From NCBI GenBank assembly GCA_902515455.1, contig CABXUO010000001.1, forward strand, positions 7,297-71,296: a stretch of 64,000 nt of DNA, read 5' to 3'. Below are positions 18,757 through 54,355 of the stretch, one piece after another; positions within the stretch are counted from its first letter, which is position 1, and the number at the start of each line of letters is the position of its first letter. The stretch is from an uncultured SAR86 cluster bacterium. Lineage in GTDB: Bacteria; Pseudomonadota; Gammaproteobacteria; Magnimaribacterales; D2472. The notes under the pieces are model-generated. The model was given only the letters and a program-made list of their open reading frames with translations. It was not told the origin of the DNA and made no database searches. Both the position numbers and the translations under genes were made by a program.

Positions 18757-19890
18757 ATGGATCCATTTAAAAATATTAGACCATATACTGATTCTGAAGT
18801 TGCAGAAGTTCTATCATCACTTACATCTAATCATTCAGTTTTAAATGCTTTAATAGGACTTCAATTTCCAGGCATTCTTTCAAAAATTCCTTTATTAAAA
18901 TACTTTATAAAGCAAAGACTTATTTCTCGAGCAAAAAAAATTCACACAATAGATGATTATCAAAAAGTATTTAAAACATTAATGGAAAAAGTTGTAAGAG
19001 AATCCATTACAGACTTTTCTGTAAATGGACTTGAAAAGTTAAACCAAAATCATAGCTATTTATTTATCTCCAATCACCGAGATATTACATTAGACGCAGC
19101 ACTTCTTGCTCTAAATCTTTATCAATCTGGCTTTAAAACATTCAATATTGCTGTGGGAAATAATTTAATGGAAGAAAGCTGGGCCTCTGATTTATTTAGA
19201 TTAAACAAAAGCTTTATTATTCAAAGATCTGGAGCAACTAAGAAAGAAATTTATTCTGGTTTGTCCCTCGCTTCAAAATTTATCAATAAAAGTATATTTC
19301 AAGATAATGACTCAGTTTGGATTGCCCAAAAACAAGGAAGGGCTAAAGATGGAATTGATGAAACTGATCCTGCATTGTTAAAAATGATTCATTTAAGTGA
19401 GAGAAAATCAAAATCTATTGCTGATTATTTTAATTCTTTAAGTGTTGTTCCCGTATCTATCTCATATGAATTTGATCCAAATGATCAATTAAAAGCGATG
19501 GAGCTTGATGCATCTGAATTTAATAACAAATATGTCAAAGAAAAAGATGAAGATCTAAAAAGCATTGCTAATGGTATAACTGGATTTAAAGGACATGTCA
19601 CATTAAATATATCTGAGCCAATGGAATTTAAGCCTAATGATGATTATCAAGCAATCTCAAGCAAAATAACTAATTCAATATTAAAAATGTATGAACTCCA
19701 TCCAACAAATTTTGCTGCATGCAATTTACTTGGTTGGGATTGGCAAGGCCAAACAAATTTTTCAAGCAAGGAAATTAATCTAGCACAGAAAGAATTAGAT
19801 AAAAGAACTAAGCCCCTTGGAATTAGCGCACGTTCAAAGTTATTAGAGCAATACGCTAATCCAGTTATTAGAAAGCTGCAATCGCACTAG
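18757..19890 (+). CDS. PlsC-like glycerolipid acyltransferase family protein
   Basis: HX4D motif NHRDITLD and a downstream ..AQKQGRAKDG block typical of lysophospholipid acyltransferases. Confidence 0.65.
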   Translation: MDPFKNIRPYTDSEVAEVLSSLTSNHSVLNALIGLQFPGILSKIPLLKYFIKQRLISRAKKIHTIDDYQKVFKTLMEKVVRESITDFSVNGLEKLNQNHSYLFISNHRDITLDAALLALNLYQSGFKTFNIAVGNNLMEESWASDLFRLNKSFIIQRSGATKKEIYSGLSLASKFINKSIFQDNDSVWIAQKQGRAKDGIDETDPALLKMIHLSERKSKSIADYFNSLSVVPVSISYEFDPNDQLKAMELDASEFNNKYVKEKDEDLKSIANGITGFKGHVTLNISEPMEFKPNDDYQAISSKITNSILKMYELHPTNFAACNLLGWDWQGQTNFSSKEINLAQKELDKRTKPLGISARSKLLEQYANPVIRKLQSH

Positions 19891-21176
19891 CTACCGGTTA
19901 TGTAACCACTCTCATTATGTTCTGTTAAATCCAGGCCTTCATGCTCACTTTCATCACTTACTCTTAAATCTGAAACGTATGAGGTAATTTTCAAGGCAAC
20001 CCAAGAAAATATTAAAGTCCATGTACAGATGACTAAAACTCCCTGAAGCTGGATCATTAATTGTTCAAATACAGATGGATCAAATCCAGCGGCACCAGCT
20101 CCTAGAAATCCATCTGGTTTGCCTACAAAGGCAAGCATTAAAATTCCTAAAATACCTCCAACTCCATGAACAGGAAAAACATCCAATGAATCATCAATTT
20201 TAAAATAAACCTTAATCATTTGAGTCGCATAAAAACATACAAAGCCTGCTAAAAGACCTATCAGTAATGCTCCTTGAGGACCCACAGTACCAGAGGCAGG
20301 TGTAATAGTGGCTAGTCCAGCAACCATTCCAGTAGCTATGCCGACTACTGTAGGCTTACCGGTTTTGAGCCACTCAACTAACATCCAAGTTAACGCGCCA
20401 ACTGCTGCACTTATATGAGTGACTAAAATAGCCATGGCAGCATTTGAATCTGCTGCTACTGCGCTACCACCATTAAATCCAAACCACCCAACCCACAGCA
20501 TAGCAGCTCCCATAACAACCATAGGTCTATTATGAGGAATTAATGAGCCTCCCGGAAAGCCTTTCCTTGGTCCAAGCATTATTGCAGCTACAAGAGCTCC
20601 AACTCCACAAGTTGCATGAACTACTAATCCTCCTGCAAAATCTATGACACCAATGCTTCCAAGGTAACCTCCGCCCCATACCATGTGGCATGCTGGCAAA
20701 TAAACTAAAGTTACCCAAAGGATAGTAAAAATACACATAGCGCTGAACTTCATTCGTTCAGCAAAGGCACCAACAACTAAAGCTGGTGTGATAATTGCAA
20801 ATGTCATTTGGAAAACAACAAATAGGCTTTCAGGAAGAGACCCTGAAGCAGAATCTCTCATCAAATTAGCCAAGAAAAAAGCTTCAGTTCCACCAATAAT
20901 GGATCCATTACCAGTGAATGCTAGGCTGTAACCATAAACAACCCACACAACAGAAACAATGCAACAAATTGCAAAACATTGCATTAGCACTGACAAAACA
21001 TTCTGTGATCTAACAAGCCCTCCATAAAATAGTGCTAGTCCAGGAAGAGTCATAAATAAGACCAATGCAGTAGCAGTTAAAATCCAGGCAGTATCTCCAG
21101 CATTTATTTCAGCAGAAAGCACTGATGGTGAAAGAAGGGCAGTTAAGCCCATTAAACAGTAATTTAATAATTTCAT
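19887..21176 (-). CDS. amtB: ammonium transporter (AmtB type with signal peptide)
   Basis: MKLLNYCLMGLTALLSPSVLSA signal peptide, DTAWIL, and FAGGLVVH / VHGVGG conserved His motifs. ATG at 21176 is preferred over the track start at 21215 because AGGAGA lies 7 nt upstream of it and it avoids overlap with glnK. Confidence 0.9.
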   Translation of the reverse strand: MKLLNYCLMGLTALLSPSVLSAEINAGDTAWILTATALVLFMTLPGLALFYGGLVRSQNVLSVLMQCFAICCIVSVVWVVYGYSLAFTGNGSIIGGTEAFFLANLMRDSASGSLPESLFVVFQMTFAIITPALVVGAFAERMKFSAMCIFTILWVTLVYLPACHMVWGGGYLGSIGVIDFAGGLVVHATCGVGALVAAIMLGPRKGFPGGSLIPHNRPMVVMGAAMLWVGWFGFNGGSAVAADSNAAMAILVTHISAAVGALTWMLVEWLKTGKPTVVGIATGMVAGLATITPASGTVGPQGALLIGLLAGFVCFYATQMIKVYFKIDDSLDVFPVHGVGGILGILMLAFVGKPDGFLGAGAAGFDPSVFEQLMIQLQGVLVICTWTLIFSWVALKITSYVSDLRVSDESEHEGLDLTEHNESGYITGS

Positions 21177-21189
21177 TTTTTTCTCCTGA

Positions 21190-21531
<342 letters not shown>

Positions 21532-21564
21532 TTACCCCAAATAAAAATAATTCACATAACTACA

Positions 21565-21580
21565 TGCAATTATGATGCCG
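21565..21580 (-). promoter_or_regulatory. sigma-54 (-24/-12) promoter for glnK-amtB
   Basis: The minus strand reads CGGCAT-cataa-TTGCA, i.e. GG-N10-GC spacing, about 37 nt upstream of the glnK ATG. It is near-identical to the element at 23964-23980. Confidence 0.6.
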
Positions 21581-21638
21581 ATATATATAGAGGTTTTTGC
21601 TTAATTTTGATTAAACCTAGGTAGGATTAATCATTTAT

Positions 21639-21655
21639 TGCACTTATTTGATGCA
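21639..21655. promoter_or_regulatory. possible NtrC-type enhancer site
   Basis: TGCACT-tattt-GATGCA matches 10 of 12 positions of the TGCACC-N5-GGTGCA dyad and lies about 60 nt upstream of the -24 element. Confidence 0.25.
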
Positions 21656-21659
21656 AATA

Positions 21660-21685
21660 CAACCGTCAACTTATGTTGACGGTTG
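21660..21685 (-). terminator. stem-loop terminator after the upstream amt gene
   Basis: Perfect 11-bp stem CAACCGTCAAC / GTTGACGGTTG with a 4-nt loop, 12 nt past the amt stop at 21698. T/A-rich flanks on both strands. Confidence 0.6.
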
Positions 21686-21697
21686 TATTATTTAGTT

Positions 21698-22975
21698 TTA
21701 TTTAAACTCTGGGTATGCTTCTACTCCTATCTCGGAAACATCAAGCCCAGCAGATTGCTCTTCATCACTAGCACGAATCGGAGTAATCATGTTTATAACA
21801 TAAACCGCTCCAAAGCTTGCTAGAAATCCAAAGCCAGCTATTGAGATGACACCAATGAATTGATAGAGGAATGATGCATCAGCATTAGTGAAAGGTACTA
21901 CCATGACACCAAATATTCCTGCGGTACCGTGAGCAGATATAGCTCCAACCGGATCATCTACATTCATCTTGTCAAAGTAAAGTATAGATGCATAAACTAT
22001 TAGACCTCCAATAAATCCAATAATGACAGACTCACCGCCTGTTGGCGCACTTGGACCTGCTGTTATAGCAACAAGACCAGCAATAGCGCCATTTATTACC
22101 ATGGTTACATCACTTTTTCCTGTCATCACTAAACTTAGTATTAAAGCACCAAGAACTCCACCAGCTGCAGCCATATTGGTATTTAGAAATACTTGACTTA
22201 CTGCAATTGCACTTGCTTCGTCGCTGATAACTAGCTCAGATCCACCATTGAATCCAAACCAACCTAACCAGAGAATTAGAGTTCCCAATGCAGCTAATGG
22301 AATATTTGACCCTGGCATTGGGTTAATGCTTCCATCAGGCCCATATTTTCCATTTCTTGGCCCAAGTAGAGTAACAACTCCTAACGCAGCTGCAGCACCT
22401 AAAAGATGAACAGTGCCAGATCCAGCATAGTCAGAATATCCAAGTGTGCTTAGAAAACCGCCACCCCAATTCCAATAACCTTGAGTTGGGTAAATAAAAG
22501 CAGTCAAAATCACTGCAAATATAAAAAACGGAATTAATTTCATCCTTCCGGCAACAGCACCTGACACAATAGACATTGCAGTGGCTACAAAAACAACCTG
22601 AAAAAAGAAGTCAGCTTGTTGAGAGTAATCCATGCCATATGCCATACCAATCTCTTCTAGTGGCATATCAGTGCTTAAACCCCATGAGGTTCCAATCGCT
22701 GGCAAAATACCATAAACAATTGCTTCTCCTGCATCATCTAGTCCACCAGATATTGCAAATACAGCATCGGATGGATACATAAGCATAAATCCACATACTA
22801 GGTACATGACACATGCTATTGAGAATAAACCTAGGTTTTTAGTTACGATTTCAGAAACATCTTTCTTTTGAACTAATCCTGCTTCAAGCATGGTAAAACC
22901 AGCTGCCATCCACATGACAAGAGCTCCTGACATAATTGCGTAGAAAGTATCTAATGCAAATTTTACTTCATCCAT
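21698..22975 (-). CDS. amt: ammonium transporter (Amt, no signal peptide)
   Basis: N-terminal DTFYAIMSGALVMWMAAGFTMLEAG, YAGSGTVHLLG and AHGTAGIFG, the conserved Amt histidines and Phe gate region. Confidence 0.9.
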   Translation of the reverse strand: MDEVKFALDTFYAIMSGALVMWMAAGFTMLEAGLVQKKDVSEIVTKNLGLFSIACVMYLVCGFMLMYPSDAVFAISGGLDDAGEAIVYGILPAIGTSWGLSTDMPLEEIGMAYGMDYSQQADFFFQVVFVATAMSIVSGAVAGRMKLIPFFIFAVILTAFIYPTQGYWNWGGGFLSTLGYSDYAGSGTVHLLGAAAALGVVTLLGPRNGKYGPDGSINPMPGSNIPLAALGTLILWLGWFGFNGGSELVISDEASAIAVSQVFLNTNMAAAGGVLGALILSLVMTGKSDVTMVINGAIAGLVAITAGPSAPTGGESVIIGFIGGLIVYASILYFDKMNVDDPVGAISAHGTAGIFGVMVVPFTNADASFLYQFIGVISIAGFGFLASFGAVYVINMITPIRASDEEQSAGLDVSEIGVEAYPEFK

Positions 22976-22989
22976 AATAATCTCCTTAG

Positions 22990-23331
<342 letters not shown>

Positions 23332-23925
23332 TTATAGGCTTGCTGAAATTGAGAAGAAGATCCCATCTTCATCACCTGTTCCGTAACCTTCATCAGTCAT
23401 GTCATACATAGTCAGTCCACATTCGTATGAACCGCATGCGAATCCATAGCTTAAGGTAACATTATCGCTGACGTCATCGTAAGTACCATATGAGAGTGAT
23501 ACAGGGCCAATTCCATAAGAAACTTCAGTGTAATCTGGCGCTCCATCTTGACCAGAAGCAAAGAATAATCCTAAATCACCAAAAGAAAGACCTAAATAGA
23601 TTTCTTCAAAATCTAAGCCTGTTTGGTTTTCTGGATAATCAAATGCAATGTAACCAATATCAACACCTACATCGCCAAGTGAAAAACCATAGCCGGCATA
23701 GTAATCTAATTCACTTCCTGCACCATCGTTAAAATTTACATTTGATCCCCATATACCTGCATAGAAACCTCCTTCAGCTTCAAAGTCAAAGCCACCTTGA
23801 ATTGCAGGTCCATCACTTTGTGTCATTCCTCTCCAAACATAATCTGAAGTGAAAGCTACATTTGCACTTACTGCTGCAAAAGAGGGTATAGTGAGCATAC
23901 CTACTAATAATAGTAATTTTTTCAT
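23332..23925 (-). CDS. outer-membrane beta-barrel protein (TIGR02001-like family, often linked to amt/glnK)
   Basis: Signal peptide. FTSDYVWRGMTQSDGPAIQGGFDFE is characteristic of that family. Gly/Tyr-rich beta strands. 3-nt gap to glnK. Confidence 0.6.
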   Translation of the reverse strand: MKKLLLLVGMLTIPSFAAVSANVAFTSDYVWRGMTQSDGPAIQGGFDFEAEGGFYAGIWGSNVNFNDGAGSELDYYAGYGFSLGDVGVDIGYIAFDYPENQTGLDFEEIYLGLSFGDLGLFFASGQDGAPDYTEVSYGIGPVSLSYGTYDDVSDNVTLSYGFACGSYECGLTMYDMTDEGYGTGDEDGIFFSISASL

Positions 23926-23963
23926 AATTTCTCCTATATTTTTATGAACTTACATAACTAAAA

Positions 23964-23980
23964 TGCAATTATTGTGCCAA
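23964..23980 (-). promoter_or_regulatory. sigma-54 (-24/-12) promoter for the OMP-glnK-amt operon
   Basis: The minus strand reads TTGGCAC-aataa-TTGCA, an exact TGGCAC-N5-TTGCA consensus, about 38 nt upstream of the ATG at 23925. Confidence 0.7.
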
Positions 23981-48521: not shown

Positions 48522-49655
48522 TTATAGTTTTTCTGGTTCTGTATCTTGATAAGATAATGGAATAGCGTCTCTTATTTTGTTAGCGCTATCTATTAAGCAT
48601 ACTTCAGATGATGCAAGTGGGCCTGATTTAAAGTAGTTTGTATTCATGCCTTCTTGAACAAGATTAATTAATTTCGTATCTTCGTTATTAACTTGTCTAT
48701 TAATTCTCCAATTTAGATATTGAGCAACTTTAGTCTCTCTTCTATCATCAGGAAGAGCATATGCAATTTCCCTGATTATTGTTGTTTTTGCGTCTATGGG
48801 TATGAATTGCATGAAATCCATTTGTTCAGGATATATATCAAATGCAAGATTTGGCCAAAGCCTGAAATAAACCCAGTATCTTTGTTTGTTTTTTGGAAGA
48901 TGGTCCATGTAAGGCAAGTATTTATCATAAAGTTTGTTTGAAAGATTATTTTTACGAGAATTTTTTCCATCTCCCCACATTTTATGAATGTATCCATTAT
49001 TAGGGGATACTTCAACGCCATAGCTTTTGCCTACTAGCCCAGATAACCCAGGATGAGCTACAGGAATATGAAGAGCATCAACGTAGTTATCAGCAATCTG
49101 CTTCCAGTTAACATTTCTTGGTCTCATCGTAATTCTTCCTAGCGGCTCCATTTCATTGAGTTTGTATTGACTTATTTCGTCAAGGTATGGAGCAAACTGA
49201 CTATTAACAGTTGGAACATCTGACTCAATTAACTTTACAAAAATAAAACCTTGAAAAATTTCCATTTCAACACTTTTTAATTTGTGCTCATTTTTATTGA
49301 AATCAATAAATTGATTTTCGTAAGGTACTTTTATGAGGTTGCCATTAAAATCATATCCCCATGCATGATAGGGACATGTTATTTTTCCTTTGCAGGTTCC
49401 AGATGTTTCATCAATAAGCTTAGTTCCTCTATGAGAGCAGAAGTTATGAAAAGCCCTTACATTTTTATCTTCACCTCTGATAACAAATACTCTTTCATTA
49501 AAAATCTCAAATGTAAAATAATCTCCTGCTTTAGGTATGTTAGAAATATGACAAACCAATTGCCAATTTTTAAGAATTAACTCAGTTTTTTCGAGTTCAA
49601 AAAATGCATCACTTGTATAAGTCCATCCTGGCAAACTTTTATATATTTTTTTCAT
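48522..49655 (-). CDS. Rieske [2Fe-2S] non-haem iron oxygenase, alpha-subunit type
   Basis: CSHRG...CPYHAWGY Rieske motif and a mononuclear iron motif NYVDALHIPVAH (D-x2-H-x4-H). Confidence 0.85.
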   Translation of the reverse strand: MKKIYKSLPGWTYTSDAFFELEKTELILKNWQLVCHISNIPKAGDYFTFEIFNERVFVIRGEDKNVRAFHNFCSHRGTKLIDETSGTCKGKITCPYHAWGYDFNGNLIKVPYENQFIDFNKNEHKLKSVEMEIFQGFIFVKLIESDVPTVNSQFAPYLDEISQYKLNEMEPLGRITMRPRNVNWKQIADNYVDALHIPVAHPGLSGLVGKSYGVEVSPNNGYIHKMWGDGKNSRKNNLSNKLYDKYLPYMDHLPKNKQRYWVYFRLWPNLAFDIYPEQMDFMQFIPIDAKTTIIREIAYALPDDRRETKVAQYLNWRINRQVNNEDTKLINLVQEGMNTNYFKSGPLASSEVCLIDSANKIRDAIPLSYQDTEPEKL

Positions 49656-49658
49656 ACG

Positions 49659-50525
49659 TTAGTTTCTTATTAGCGGTCTTGTTAGGCAAGTAGGTCCACC
49701 TTCACCTTTTCGACTAATTTCATCACCTTTATAAAAACGAATTTTGCATCCAATCTTCTCAAGTTTATTTTTAATTTCAGGTAAATTTTCAAGCATGATA
49801 ATTGATCTTGGAGCTGTTGCCAAAATGTTACACCCCATTAATGGATATTCAGCTTCACTCACTTCAATAAATTCTATTCCTAATTTAGTGAGCCAGTTTA
49901 AAAATGTTTCAGGCATAAAAGGCTTATAGATAACTGCAAGATCTTTATCTAATGGTGAAATTATTGACATTAAATGCAAGACATCATCTGGATGATCTGG
50001 ATCAGGCAAATTTACAATATGTAGATCGATTTCTGGGCCTAAAATTTCTTTGAGTTGACGAATTCCTTCAGAATTGGTTCTTGGTCCTAAACCAACTGCA
50101 GCATTTTTATTATCTATCCAAATAAAATCACCGCCTTCAAGCGTCCCAGGTGATTTTATTTGTCCTGCAACTTTATACCCATTATCTGCAAGAGTTTTAA
50201 AATTCTCCTCTGCTTCAGGCGTTCTAGATGATCTTCCCATATTACATAGAATCAAACCTGAGTCACATACCAAAATACTATCTCTGGTATAAATACTATC
50301 TAAAGTTAACTTATCTGAGGAGGGGAGCTCAATGATCTTGATTTCATCTTCTTCAAGAAAACTCCTAAAATAATCGTATTCAATAATTGCTTTTTTTAGA
50401 TCTGGTTTTGCATGAAATCTAAGTGGCGTCCATTCATTTGTAATTTTTTCATCATTAACAAAGCTTGAAAGTGGAGACCTAATTGCAACCTCACTTATTT
50501 TAGAGTATTCATTTAATAGGTTCAT
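49659..50525 (-). CDS. guanidino-group-modifying enzyme (amidinotransferase / DDAH / arginine deiminase-like fold)
   Basis: YTRDS, LEGGDF, VLHLMS and a C-terminal GEGGPTCLTRPL (nucleophilic Cys), the order seen in the DDAH/ADI superfamily. Confidence 0.7.
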   Translation of the reverse strand: MNLLNEYSKISEVAIRSPLSSFVNDEKITNEWTPLRFHAKPDLKKAIIEYDYFRSFLEEDEIKIIELPSSDKLTLDSIYTRDSILVCDSGLILCNMGRSSRTPEAEENFKTLADNGYKVAGQIKSPGTLEGGDFIWIDNKNAAVGLGPRTNSEGIRQLKEILGPEIDLHIVNLPDPDHPDDVLHLMSIISPLDKDLAVIYKPFMPETFLNWLTKLGIEFIEVSEAEYPLMGCNILATAPRSIIMLENLPEIKNKLEKIGCKIRFYKGDEISRKGEGGPTCLTRPLIRN

Positions 50526-51829
50526 AATTCTGTTTTAAAAAGATATATAGGTGTTCCAATGAAAATTAGAATAACTGAATACATAATCATCTCTATGCCT
50601 GCTCCCCAAATAGCAAAAATTGCGTATAAAAAGGTCCCAAATGATATCAAAAAAGCATACTTTTTTTGCTGACTTTTTTTATTTGTATGCACAAATTTTA
50701 ATTCAGCCATAGCACAAAATGCATAGGCTATTAAAGTGGATAATGTTGAGAGCATGGCCATAAAAACAAATGCATTTATGATGCCTTTTGTATAATTCAA
50801 CATTAACAGAATACTTACAAATGTACCTGACAACAGATATGTAAATATAGGTGTGCCAGATTTTGTTAATGATATAAATTTAGCTGGAAGTAAGCCATCT
50901 CTTGCTGCTGCTAAACTTAAGTTACCTGCTGTAAGTGTGTTTGCATTTAATGAGCCCAAAGTAGAAACAAGAGCTCCAATAGTAATTAGTGTGCCGCCTG
51001 TAGATCCTAAAATTTTGCTAGCAGCTAAAGCAAATGGGGCAGAGGAATCTATGAGTTCTTTTGCTGGAACGATCAATGCAATCGCAAAACTTACTAGGAT
51101 ATAAAGAGTCAAAATTGTTAAAACAGATGCTATTAAAACTTTTGGGATAGTTTCTTGAGGATTAATTACATTATCTGCAGGAACTGTTGCAGTTTCAATT
51201 CCAATGAATGACCACATAACTAAGGTCGTGACAGTACCTAGCAATGAAAGAGGGTGAAGGTTGGTTGGATTAAACTCCGGCAAGTTACTAACATTTAAAT
51301 TTGACGCGCCGAGAAAAATAATTAATAGAAGAGGTAATAATTTCAATAGAGTTGAAATTAGCTGAAATCTACTACTGTTTTCTATGCTTTTAATATTTAG
51401 AAGTACAACAGCCCAAACTAACAACAGTGAAGCAATCAAAGAATGAATTGGCGAATCGCTAATATTTGGAATAAAAAAACCTAAATAGCCAACAAAGGCT
51501 ATTGATATTCCCGCAATTGCAGAAATACATGCAATCCAATAAGTCCAGGCAATTATAAAGCCAGAAAAACTTCCCAGTGCTTCATTGACATAAACATAAG
51601 GACCTCCAGTCTTTGGCATTCTTATTACCAGTTGAGCCATCGTTAGGGCAACTAAGATTGATCCTAGTCCTGCTATAAGCCAACCAAAGAAACCAAGCAT
51701 CCCGTAGGGTGCTAAAATTGTAGGCATCATAAAAATCCCTGAGCCAATAGCGCAGCCAACTGCTATGGACCAGCCCCTCCAAAATCCAATAACTCTATGT
51801 TGATTAGAATTCATCAAATGATAATACAC
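50522..51829 (-). CDS. APC-superfamily amino acid/polyamine permease
   Basis: 12-TM protein. GCAIGSGIFMMP and GGPYVYV motifs resemble basic amino acid/polyamine antiporters. Its stop overlaps the next start (ATGA). Confidence 0.8.
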   Translation of the reverse strand: MYYHLMNSNQHRVIGFWRGWSIAVGCAIGSGIFMMPTILAPYGMLGFFGWLIAGLGSILVALTMAQLVIRMPKTGGPYVYVNEALGSFSGFIIAWTYWIACISAIAGISIAFVGYLGFFIPNISDSPIHSLIASLLLVWAVVLLNIKSIENSSRFQLISTLLKLLPLLLIIFLGASNLNVSNLPEFNPTNLHPLSLLGTVTTLVMWSFIGIETATVPADNVINPQETIPKVLIASVLTILTLYILVSFAIALIVPAKELIDSSAPFALAASKILGSTGGTLITIGALVSTLGSLNANTLTAGNLSLAAARDGLLPAKFISLTKSGTPIFTYLLSGTFVSILLMLNYTKGIINAFVFMAMLSTLSTLIAYAFCAMAELKFVHTNKKSQQKKYAFLISFGTFLYAIFAIWGAGIEMIMYSVILIFIGTPIYLFKTEL

Positions 51830-51907
51830 CTAAAAAATAAGGTTTTTTAATAATATGAAGTTCTCATCAAGACACGATGAGTAATAAGAGAATTTAGATA
51901 AAGCGAT

Positions 51908-52507: not shown

Positions 52508-52723
52508 TTAAATTTGACGTCTTAAGTATATTTGTTTTGGGCCATCTTGAGAGATTAATTCCCAGCTTTCTTTCCCAAGTTTATTTAACTCAATTCTAGA
52601 CATCTCATATTTCCAATGTACAGCATCTTTATGTTCAATCTTAAATGCTTCAGTCTCTTCGTTTGAGTAACCCATAGCTGTTGAATTGCTATGATCGACA
52701 ATTTTATATTCCCATTTTGTCAT
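52508..52723 (-). CDS. DUF4177-like small protein (71 aa)
   Basis: MTKWEYKIV... ...LNKLGKESWELIS matches the WEYK / LN..G..GWEL pattern of DUF4177. GGAG RBS 7 nt upstream. Confidence 0.6.
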   Translation of the reverse strand: MTKWEYKIVDHSNSTAMGYSNEETEAFKIEHKDAVHWKYEMSRIELNKLGKESWELISQDGPKQIYLRRQI

Positions 52724-52752
52724 TTTTTCATCTCCTGCCGGTTGGCAATAAG

Positions 52753-52805
52753 ATGCGTTCCTTCAGTATCATTACTTACTTCCGTCCTATGAAAGGATGA
52801 ACGAT
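52753..52805 (-). ncRNA. candidate glutamine riboswitch (glnA-RNA / Downstream-peptide class), cis-regulatory leader
   Basis: The minus-strand RNA reads AUCGUUCAUCCUUUCAUAGGACGGAAGUAAGUAAUGAUACUGAAGGAACGCAU. P1 is CGUUC/GAACG. Hairpin UCCU-uucau-AGGA. Conserved ACGGAAGUA. Hairpin AGUA-auga-UACU. Conserved GAAGGAACGC. It lies 29 nt upstream of the DUF4177 ATG. Confidence 0.65.
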
Positions 52806-52811
52806 AAGATA

Positions 52812-52841
52812 ATTTTCACAAATTATGTTCATCGGTGTCAA
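52812..52841 (-). promoter_or_regulatory. sigma-70-like promoter for the riboswitch leader
   Basis: The minus strand has TTGACA (52836-52841), an 18-nt spacer and GAAAAT (52812-52817). The predicted start falls about 7 nt downstream, at the first aptamer nucleotides. Confidence 0.4.
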
Positions 52842-52912: not shown

Positions 52913-52929
52913 GCCTTACCTTAAGGAAT

Positions 52930-53019
52930 GGAGAGATGGCAGAGCGGTTGAATGCACTGGTCTTGAAAACCAGCAAACCTTCGCGGGTTTCCAGGGTTCG
53001 AATCCCTGTCTCTCCGCCA
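52930..53019 (+). tRNA. tRNA-Ser (anticodon UGA), CCA encoded
   Basis: Acceptor GGAGAGA/TCTCTCC. Anticodon stem CTGGT/ACCAG with loop CTTGAAA. Long variable arm AAACC-ttcgc-GGGTTT. T arm CAGGG-TTCGAAT-CCCTG. Discriminator G plus CCA. Confidence 0.95.
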
Positions 53020-53023
53020 GTTT

Positions 53024-54355
53024 TTAGTTGCTCAAACTAGAATAGAGTAATGTTTTAAGTTCCTCTCGAAGTGGATATTTATCCGATGGCATGTACTGCG
53101 TCATCATTGTAGCTGCAACATTATTTTTTTTATCCACCCAGAAAATTGTGCTAGCAGCACCACCCCAAAAAAATTCTCCCTTTGAAGAATAAGTTCCAGC
53201 AACACCAGGATTCATAATAGTTCCAACTGTTAATCCGAAACCAACACCTTCTAATCCAAAAGCAGATCCATCTTTTAGAATTTCATCTGAGAGATGATTA
53301 TTTGACATCAAATTTACAGATGCTTCACTGAGGATTCTGACACCATTTAAAATACCACCATTTAAAAGCATCTCAGCAAATTTACTATAATCATCTATAT
53401 TCGAGACTAGACCTGAACCACCATCATAAAGTTTTGAGGAATTTGTAAGATATGGCGACTTATCAAAGGCGTCTATTGGTCTAAGTTCTTTGGAAAATAT
53501 AAGCTCAGCTTGATTTAAACCAGAAGGAGCAACAATTTCTCCATCTCTCGAAAATGCTCCTGAGGTATAAAGTGTTGTAAATGAATCCTTATCACTTTCA
53601 TTTACTGAAAAGCCAATACTTTCAAGTCCCAATGGATCAAATATATTTTTTTGAAGATACTCAGCAAATGTCATTTTTGAAATCACTTCAACCACGCATC
53701 CCAAAATATCCATATTAATTCCATATGACCATTTTTCTCCTGGATTATGAAGGAGAGGTACAGAGGCTGCAGCAGTAGAAAACTGGCAGGTATTGCCTGG
53801 AAATTTATTTAGTTCTGCATCCACAGCTCCAAAATAATAGGGACGAATATTATATTTTCTATACATTTGGTTAACTGGACCTTCACCAGCCCAGCTGTAA
53901 GTAAGGCCACTTGTATGAGTTAATAAGTCTCTAATTGTTACTTCTCTTTTTGGTTTTACCACATAATCTTGAAAATCAAGATTGATAACTTTTGTATTTT
54001 TAAAAGCAGGAATATATTTAGAAACCTTGTCATTTAATCTTAATTTTCCACTCTCAATGAGTTGCATAATTGCAACGCCAGTAACCGGCTTTGTCATTGA
54101 GTAAATTCTAAAAACAGTTTTTTTGTCTATATTTATATTTTTTTCAATATCCGCATATCCGTGAGTGTGACGAAATATTTCTTTACTATCTTTTTTTATT
54201 AGAATTGAGATATTAGGTAAACTGCCGTTATTAACATATTCATTAAAATGATTTGAAATTCTTTTTTTGTCTTCTGAGTCAAGCGAGCTTGCAGAAATTT
54301 GCAATGATATTAAAAAAAATAATATTAATGATCTAAAGATTCTCATAAATTTCAC
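53024..54355 (-). CDS. serine hydrolase, beta-lactamase (class C)/esterase family, secreted
   Basis: Signal peptide, S-x-x-K motif SMTKPVTG, and downstream Tyr and GG motifs. Confidence 0.8.
   Translation of the reverse strand: MKFMRIFRSLILFFLISLQISASSLDSEDKKRISNHFNEYVNNGSLPNISILIKKDSKEIFRHTHGYADIEKNINIDKKTVFRIYSMTKPVTGVAIMQLIESGKLRLNDKVSKYIPAFKNTKVINLDFQDYVVKPKREVTIRDLLTHTSGLTYSWAGEGPVNQMYRKYNIRPYYFGAVDAELNKFPGNTCQFSTAAASVPLLHNPGEKWSYGINMDILGCVVEVISKMTFAEYLQKNIFDPLGLESIGFSVNESDKDSFTTLYTSGAFSRDGEIVAPSGLNQAELIFSKELRPIDAFDKSPYLTNSSKLYDGGSGLVSNIDDYSKFAEMLLNGGILNGVRILSEASVNLMSNNHLSDEILKDGSAFGLEGVGFGLTVGTIMNPGVAGTYSSKGEFFWGGAASTIFWVDKKNNVAATMMTQYMPSDKYPLREELKTLLYSSLSN

Follow-up and report, generated by a model that had tools for sequence, protein, structure and literature searches.

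The minus strand of the 64,000-nt stretch of DNA analyzed here, referred to as the window, carries a short leader followed by a gene for a 71-aa protein (MTKWEYKIVDHSNSTAMGYSNEETE...) and a gene for a 198-aa membrane protein (Table 1). The host is a SAR86 gammaproteobacterium, which agrees with the proteobacterial, heterotrophic setting assumed in a first-pass annotation of the sequence, and the G+C content of the window is 32–39%. SAR86 bacteria are marine, non-photosynthetic gammaproteobacteria and rank among the heterotrophic lineages with the highest abundance in the surface ocean. The leader quoted in the first-pass annotation is present at 52753–52805 exactly as written, and the closing helix P1, the two hairpins, the junction and the 3' element that it described are all found (Table 1). 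A promoter scan recovered the TTGACA-N18-GAAAAT promoter that had been proposed to start transcription at the aptamer, with the 18-nt spacer ending in TGT and thereby forming an extended −10 element, and the transcription start is predicted at approximately 52805, the first nucleotide of the aptamer. The TTGACA and the TTTG before the −10 element are kept in 12 of 14 aligned orthologous leaders. The ribosome-binding site and the start codon likewise lie where they had been placed, with the ATG of the 71-aa gene (52721–52723) 32 nt past the last P1 pair.

The ATG of the 198-aa gene is located 3 nt past the stop codon of the 71-aa gene and has no Shine-Dalgarno sequence of its own, so that its translation is probably coupled to that of the small gene. 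The membrane protein gave no Pfam or NCBIfam match, and its more than 1000 homologues are all unnamed. Farther downstream on the minus strand, at 48522–51829, are genes for an APC-family permease, a DDAH/arginine-deiminase-like enzyme and a GbcA-like Rieske oxygenase, whose synteny behind this riboswitch unit is kept in 13 species genomes and which together may form a pathway acting on guanidino or methylated compounds rich in nitrogen. The 78-nt gap upstream of the permease gene contains a promoter-like site at 51821–51850. On the opposite side of the leader, a divergent tRNA-Ser(UGA) gene is positioned at 52930–53019, and the riboswitch unit starts about 90 nt away from this tRNA in most loci, with approximately 2 kb inserted between the two in L003 and L013. 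Sub-threshold Rfam matches at 52923–53118 (sX4 and a plastid 3' UTR family) overlap the tRNA gene and are apparently caused by it.

Table 1. Positions of the features in the window (numbering of the forward strand; − denotes the minus strand).
Feature	Position	Strand	Basis or remark
Sigma-70-type promoter	52812–52841	−	promoter scan, 10/12 matches + TG
−35 element TTGACA	52836–52841	−
−10 element GAAAAT	52812–52817	−
Type-1 glutamine aptamer (glnA RNA, RF01739)	52752–52805	−	cmscan 60.6 bits; orthologous leaders 55–64 bits
P1 helix CGUUC/GAACG	52799–52803 with 52756–52760	−
P1a (first hairpin) UCCU/AGGA	52794–52797 with 52785–52788	−	U52797-A52785 to U52794-A52788
Junction ACGGAAGUA	52777–52785	−	two G at 52782–52783
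P2 (second hairpin) AGUA/UACU	52773–52776 with 52765–52768	−
3' aptamer segment GAAGGAACGC	52755–52764	−
Junction GAAG	52761–52764	−
Conserved C after P1	52755	−
Expression platform, Shine-Dalgarno-sequestering hairpin	52729–52755	−	MFE fold and consensus fold
Shine-Dalgarno AGGAG of 71-aa gene	52732–52736	−	8 nt before ATG
Regulated gene, 71-aa protein	52508–52723	−	ORF; 64 close metagenome homologues, 36 species genomes
Membrane protein, 198 aa	51908–52504	−	ORF; no family assignment
Perfect sigma-54 consensus TGGCACAATAATTGCA	23964–23979	−	upstream of glnK-amt cluster
Sigma-54-like site, 2 mismatches	21565–21580	−	before second glnK

The aptamer and its class

Judged from its sequence, the minus-strand leader at 52752–52805 is a genuine type-1 glutamine riboswitch and belongs to a known class that has been characterized in both structure and function. 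The first-pass annotation had pointed to the glnA-RNA/Downstream-peptide aptamers together and had proposed covariance models as the check. The type-1 (glnA RNA) part of this assignment passed with a wide margin, with the Rfam model RF01739 aligned over positions 1–53 of 53, i.e. its full length, at 60.6 bits compared with a gathering score of 35 (E = 6.6e-11, cmscan), and the type-2 part did not stand, as the Downstream-peptide/Glutamine-II model (RF01704) did not match anywhere in the window at a cut-off as loose as E ≤ 1. In a scan of the entire window with 4227 Rfam families, the only two matches above the curated gathering thresholds were tRNA-Ser and RF01739, and no second RF01739 copy was found in the window in a permissive scan at E ≤ 1.

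The model alignment contains the three-helix junction (P1, P1a and P2) with the conserved strands ACGGAAGUA and GAAGGAACG, and the strongly conserved core nucleotides of RF01739 are present as a complete set in the window copy. As summarized from structural work in two published studies, a junction G enters P1 when glutamine binds and forms a pair there with the conserved C located just past the 3' strand of this helix (PMC11477058, PMC6212724). Both makers of this ligand-dependent long-range G-C pair, the GG of the junction and C52755, are found in the SAR86 leader, and the window copy would be expected to bind glutamine. The base after P1 is C in 58 of 63 distinct leaders and U in 5–6 of them.

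The three-helix junction, ACGGAAGUA and GAAGGAACGC are identical to those of the type-1 members known from the Synechocystis gifB leader and the crystallized Synechococcus aptamer. In contrast to the cyanobacterial type-1 riboswitches, the SAR86 copy resides in a heterotrophic gammaproteobacterium. The type-2 aptamers (Downstream-peptide, RF01704) have the same ligand, related core sequences and very small ORFs behind them (PMC2864571), but are built on a different pseudoknot architecture. Cyanobacteria and marine metagenomes provided the members from which the class was defined (PMC2864571), and Klaehn et al. reported it in cyanobacterial genomes only, with the hosts of the metagenomic copies unknown (PMC6212724). 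Published copies are also carried by phages of SAR11 and OM43 (PMC9004378), and a 2025 study lists RF01739 matches inside SAR86 deletions without comment (PMC12379486). The GOS contig AACY020556514.1 (L080) is among our metagenome matches with a SAR86-type leader, so that leaders of this type were probably among the original metagenomic members of the class. New here are the placement of a large group of metagenomic copies in SAR86, the single dedicated target gene and the comparative support for the expression platform.

Conservation and covariation of the leader

The proposal that orthologous leaders should retain the aptamer helices was upheld in 15 species genomes, where the aptamer scores 55–64 bits, and the helices are 99–100% pair-compatible across 63 distinct leaders compared with 35–53% when the partners are slid. 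The covariation expected alongside was weak within SAR86, where the leaders are about 90% identical and a single pair has changed on both sides. The constraint on the leader is far stronger than on synonymous sites, with 57 of 90 leader columns invariant in the 63 leaders and 61 of 71 third codon positions varying in 51 distinct coding sequences of the small gene.

Directly after P1 begins a hairpin that is predicted to sequester the Shine-Dalgarno sequence. In its outer helix the tail CAUCUU (C52755-U52750) pairs with G52734-G52729 in the Shine-Dalgarno region GGAGAUG, and in its inner helix (UGCC/GGCA) U52747-C52744 pair with G52739-A52736 around a four-base loop at 52740–52743. The first three tail bases, CAU (52753–52755), are shared with the conserved 3' end of the aptamer. 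The hairpin alone has a folding energy of −11.1 kcal/mol and pairs four of the five bases of AGGAG, and in the unconstrained ensemble the GAG of the Shine-Dalgarno sequence shows pairing probabilities of 0.84–1.0. When CAU was forced to be unpaired, the Shine-Dalgarno bases were still 0.6–0.9 paired in a plain thermodynamic model, in which tertiary structure is not representable. Among the 63 leaders the platform stems are kept and the loop is hypervariable, with at least ten loop sequences, and the closing pair of the hairpin is CG in 58, UG in three and UA in two. The A and U that follow C52755 are pairable with the AU preceding P1 in 60–62 of the 63.

Since the SAR86 leaders are too alike for strong statistics, a wider set of 148 distinct leaders was used, comprising those from cells and the viral matches listed. 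In 114 of the 148 leaders of this set, a downstream pentamer is able to pair with all of the first five bases of the tail, compared with 60 ± 4.6 (maximum 71) when the tails were permuted among leaders. The matched variants include CAUCU/AGAUG, CACUU/AAGUG, CACCU/GGGUG, CACUC/GAGUG, CACCC/GGGUG, CAAUC/GAUUG and UAUCU/AGAUA. The pairing pentamer adjoins a Shine-Dalgarno-like motif in 110 of the 114 pairing leaders among the matches listed. By these alignments, the helix between the aptamer tail and the ribosome-binding region covaries throughout the class, which lends comparative support to a mechanism that was until now only postulated. For gifB, Klaehn et al. postulate that the C after P1 and its neighbors pair with the ribosome-binding site until glutamine binds (PMC6212724). 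The SAR86 leader resembles that of gifB in that the aptamer lies in the 5' leader of a small-protein gene and the tail after P1 is complementary to the ribosome-binding site, and differs from it in the additional inner hairpin (UGCC-loop-GGCA) of its platform.

The virus-borne type-1 aptamers (Melnitz, Mosig, cyanophages; PMC9004378) share with the SAR86 copy the aptamer core, the pairing rule between tail and Shine-Dalgarno sequence and the marine habitat, whereas the SAR86 copy is chromosomal and syntenic across SAR86 species. Among IMG/VR viral contigs the type-1 core is very common, with at least 120 carriers, and often stands before small ORFs, some of which have the YRGV.Y motif of IF17-like proteins, and the pairing rule is valid across the viral loci (L145–L224 and further). 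Tandem type-1 aptamers occur in L081 (775–910) as well as in L115, L125, L129 and L134, followed by a 38-aa ORF (MTYRQYQWKQCVIARRRALIHKLL...), and in these tandem loci the tail CACCU has its counterpart in an AGGUG located past the Shine-Dalgarno site. In L101 (1497–1760, minus strand) a SAR86-like aptamer precedes a different gene, a 54-aa basic ORF (MTISKLHNLDKSIHQNPRRL...), with weak complementarity between tail and Shine-Dalgarno sequence.

The regulated gene and its distribution

In sequence comparisons the 71-aa ORF is a real gene, with 6177, 2738 and 26382 pairwise differences at codon positions 1, 2 and 3, respectively, among the 51 distinct coding sequences. Public gene calls (P0003, P0006, P0007 and P0009) often begin the ORF at an in-frame start farther upstream, giving 104 or 107 aa, and thereby hide the riboswitch inside an annotated coding sequence. 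The first-pass annotation had labeled the gene as DUF4177, of which the relationship holds and the family membership does not, as the window protein reaches 16.8 bits against the DUF4177 (PF13783) cut-off of 25. All 27 aligned relatives match DUF4177 at E ≤ 0.01 (best 2.4e-6), and several relatives carry a precomputed PF13783 match. For the NCBIfam family Sp36_fam (NF053529), the window protein scores 20.1 bits against a cut-off of 50, and 26–27 of the 27 relatives match below threshold (best E 2.3e-7). Generic DUF4177-like proteins, used as a control, score 18–43 bits with Sp36_fam; since such ordinary proteins match this family equally well or better, the link to sP36 is one at the superfamily level. 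The 71-aa protein is thus, as far as profile comparisons can place it, a divergent DUF4177/sP36 relative restricted to SAR86-type genomes.

A profile search of 1.84 billion representative sequences returned 17 relatives below E = 1e-7, mostly fragments, which indicates a narrow family; beyond these are generic DUF4177-like proteins that share the pattern WEYK...LNKLG.EGWELV...YLKR. This pattern is also common to the SAR86 protein and the sP36/DUF4177 proteins, which are small cytoplasmic proteins of similar size, and the SAR86 protein is distinguished from them by a conserved insert of about 20 aa (DHSNSTAMGYSNEETE) in addition to its scores far below the curated cut-offs. The AlphaFold2 model of the 71-aa protein has a beta-alpha-alpha-beta-beta arrangement with a pLDDT of 76. 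A Foldseek comparison of this model with the PDB gave nothing with E below 1, so that the structure adds no function, and the HIV reverse transcriptase entries returned by a profile search of the PDB (E 0.04–0.09) are chance matches. The target differs from that of gifB in being DUF4177-like and not a DUF4278/IF17 protein, and no sequence or fold relationship to IF17 was detected. A literature search found no paper linking a glutamine riboswitch to DUF4177. Unlike the virus-borne systems, the SAR86 locus encodes a protein with no relative in 2.9 million viral contigs, and a viral origin of the cassette was rejected for the protein.

When one genome per bacterial or archaeal species was scanned, relatives of the small gene were found in 36 genomes, nearly all titled SAR86 cluster, with five titled Pelagibacterales/Pelagibacteraceae and one Halieaceae. 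The best matches to the proteins of the window are 94–99% identical. In 15 of the 36 genomes (L001–L015) the aptamer occupies the same position before the orthologous small gene, and for the other 21 orthologues (L016–L036) Rfam models found no aptamer and a relaxed motif search showed no decayed copy. A metagenome scan with the SAR86-type core pattern gave 108 contigs, approximately 100 of which have the aptamer, the same platform and the WEYKIVDHSNST ORF. The order riboswitch, small gene, membrane gene, permease gene, DDAH-like gene and Rieske gene is found in the window and in L001–L013. In L014 and L015, where the 198-aa gene is absent from this position, only the small gene lies behind the riboswitch, and the next gene is convergent; this monocistronic arrangement identifies the small protein as the regulated target. 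A loose linkage of the two genes persists in four riboswitch-free loci of the SAR86B type (L022, L023, L031 and L033), in which the 198-aa and small genes share a strand, the former about 3.3 kb upstream and separated from the latter by opposite-strand genes. Around the 21 riboswitch-free orthologues the gene neighborhoods vary and are uninformative, except for glmU-glmS in five.

Direction of the switch and the nitrogen context

With the class membership of the aptamer, its conservation, the target gene and the covariation supporting the tail/Shine-Dalgarno helix established, we consider the leader to be, probably, a functional type-1 glutamine riboswitch that controls translation of the 71-aa protein and, in this genome, of the coupled 198-aa membrane protein and is ON at high glutamine. 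Transcription would begin at the first aptamer nucleotide. Without glutamine, the CAUCUU after P1 would pair with GGAGAUG and, together with the short inner helix, bury the Shine-Dalgarno sequence with about −11 kcal/mol. Upon binding of glutamine the aptamer core would close and the junction G would take C52755, and the A and U that follow could pair with the AU preceding P1. Half of the outer helix would then be lost and the ribosome-binding site exposed, allowing the small protein to be made, and the membrane protein would be raised as well by translational coupling, so that the switch would be ON when nitrogen is plentiful. C52755 would serve both as the first base of the sequestering helix and as the partner in the ligand-dependent G-C pair; these two pairings are mutually exclusive, from which we infer an ON switch. 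The opening may be partial, since the Shine-Dalgarno bases retain much of their pairing in the folding model when CAU is withheld. In vivo, glutamine increases protein synthesis through the type-1 riboswitch of gifB (Klaehn et al. 2018, PMC6212724).

The same aptamer and target could also operate in the opposite direction, with the glutamine-stabilized P1 stacking on the adjacent hairpin and strengthening it so that translation falls, which we regard as unlikely. Such an OFF switch would be compatible with the secondary structure of the aptamer, as the sequestering hairpin begins immediately after P1, and with the folding model in which the withdrawal of CAU leaves much of the Shine-Dalgarno sequence paired; negative regulation is moreover expected, though not yet tested, for the metagenomic glnA-associated copies (PMC6212724). 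However, the tail begins with the conserved C, which in the bound aptamer is engaged in the internal G-C pair, the leader sequence offers the tail no anti-sequestor partner that would free the Shine-Dalgarno sequence in the unbound state, and the sole in vivo test of a type-1 riboswitch revealed an ON switch (PMC6212724). Riboswitches in general employ several kinds of platform, and the SAR86 aptamer might bind glutamine and act on transcription elongation or mRNA stability instead of translation initiation. This is improbable, as no terminator-like stem with a U run was found between the aptamer and the ATG, where the hairpin is followed by an A run, and the covarying partner of the tail abuts a Shine-Dalgarno-like motif in nearly all of the pairing leaders among the matches listed. 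That the element is degenerate or resembles the class by chance and regulates nothing, or that it senses another ligand, to which the U in place of the conserved C in a minority of copies might point, is hardly credible for a leader that scores 25 bits above the curated threshold across the whole model, has all strongly conserved core nucleotides and is much more conserved than synonymous sites in more than 60 distinct copies.

As a translational ON switch, the SAR86 leader would bring direct sensing of glutamine by RNA into the nitrogen control of a streamlined heterotroph that has also retained sigma-54, P-II and Amt genes, and it singles out an uncharacterized 71-aa protein as the output of this sensing, which makes the function of the protein directly testable. 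A second connection with glutamine is seen in five other genomes titled Pelagibacterales/Pelagibacteraceae, i.e. SAR11 by title, in which a riboswitch-free small gene lies about 20–40 nt behind glmU-glmS (L021, 798–4216, and also L025, L026, L032 and L034). GlmS is the glutamine-consuming amidotransferase of amino-sugar synthesis. From these two independent links, the riboswitch in one clade and the glmU-glmS-small-gene arrangement in the five other genomes, we put forward the tentative idea that the riboswitch drives a DUF4177-type small protein that could act post-translationally on nitrogen assimilation as an effector of nitrogen status. The ammonium transporter/GlnK pair, glutamine synthetase and GlmS are candidate targets of such an effector. 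In Methanosarcina mazei, AmtB1 is blocked by GlnK1 after an ammonium upshift, with the sP36 protein as the mediator (PMC10714827), and the action of sP36 after a nitrogen upshift would fit the timing of a glutamine-ON switch in SAR86. The logic is also that of gifB, where a glutamine riboswitch leads to a small protein, IF17, at plentiful nitrogen. If the effector role is correct, SAR86 would present the third independent case, after IF17 and the archaeal sP36, in which a signal of plentiful nitrogen makes a small inhibitory protein, and the DUF4177 superfamily would gain a function.

The two glnK-amt units that the first-pass annotation had noted in the window were confirmed with Pfam (P-II, Ammonium_transp) as two P-II/ammonium-transporter pairs in a cluster at 19887–23979 on the minus strand, approximately 30 kb from the riboswitch. 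The cluster has the order sigma-54 site, Gcw_chp outer-membrane-type protein, P-II, Amt, second sigma-54-like site, P-II and Amt. The sigma-54 control proposed for both units is represented by a perfect consensus before the cluster and a site with two mismatches before the second glnK. At up to two mismatches the sigma-54 pattern has 33 matches in the window compared with 31.7 by chance, and among these matches only the perfect, well-placed site is worth noting. Both P-II proteins retain the T-loop tyrosine (..ELYRGAEY..).
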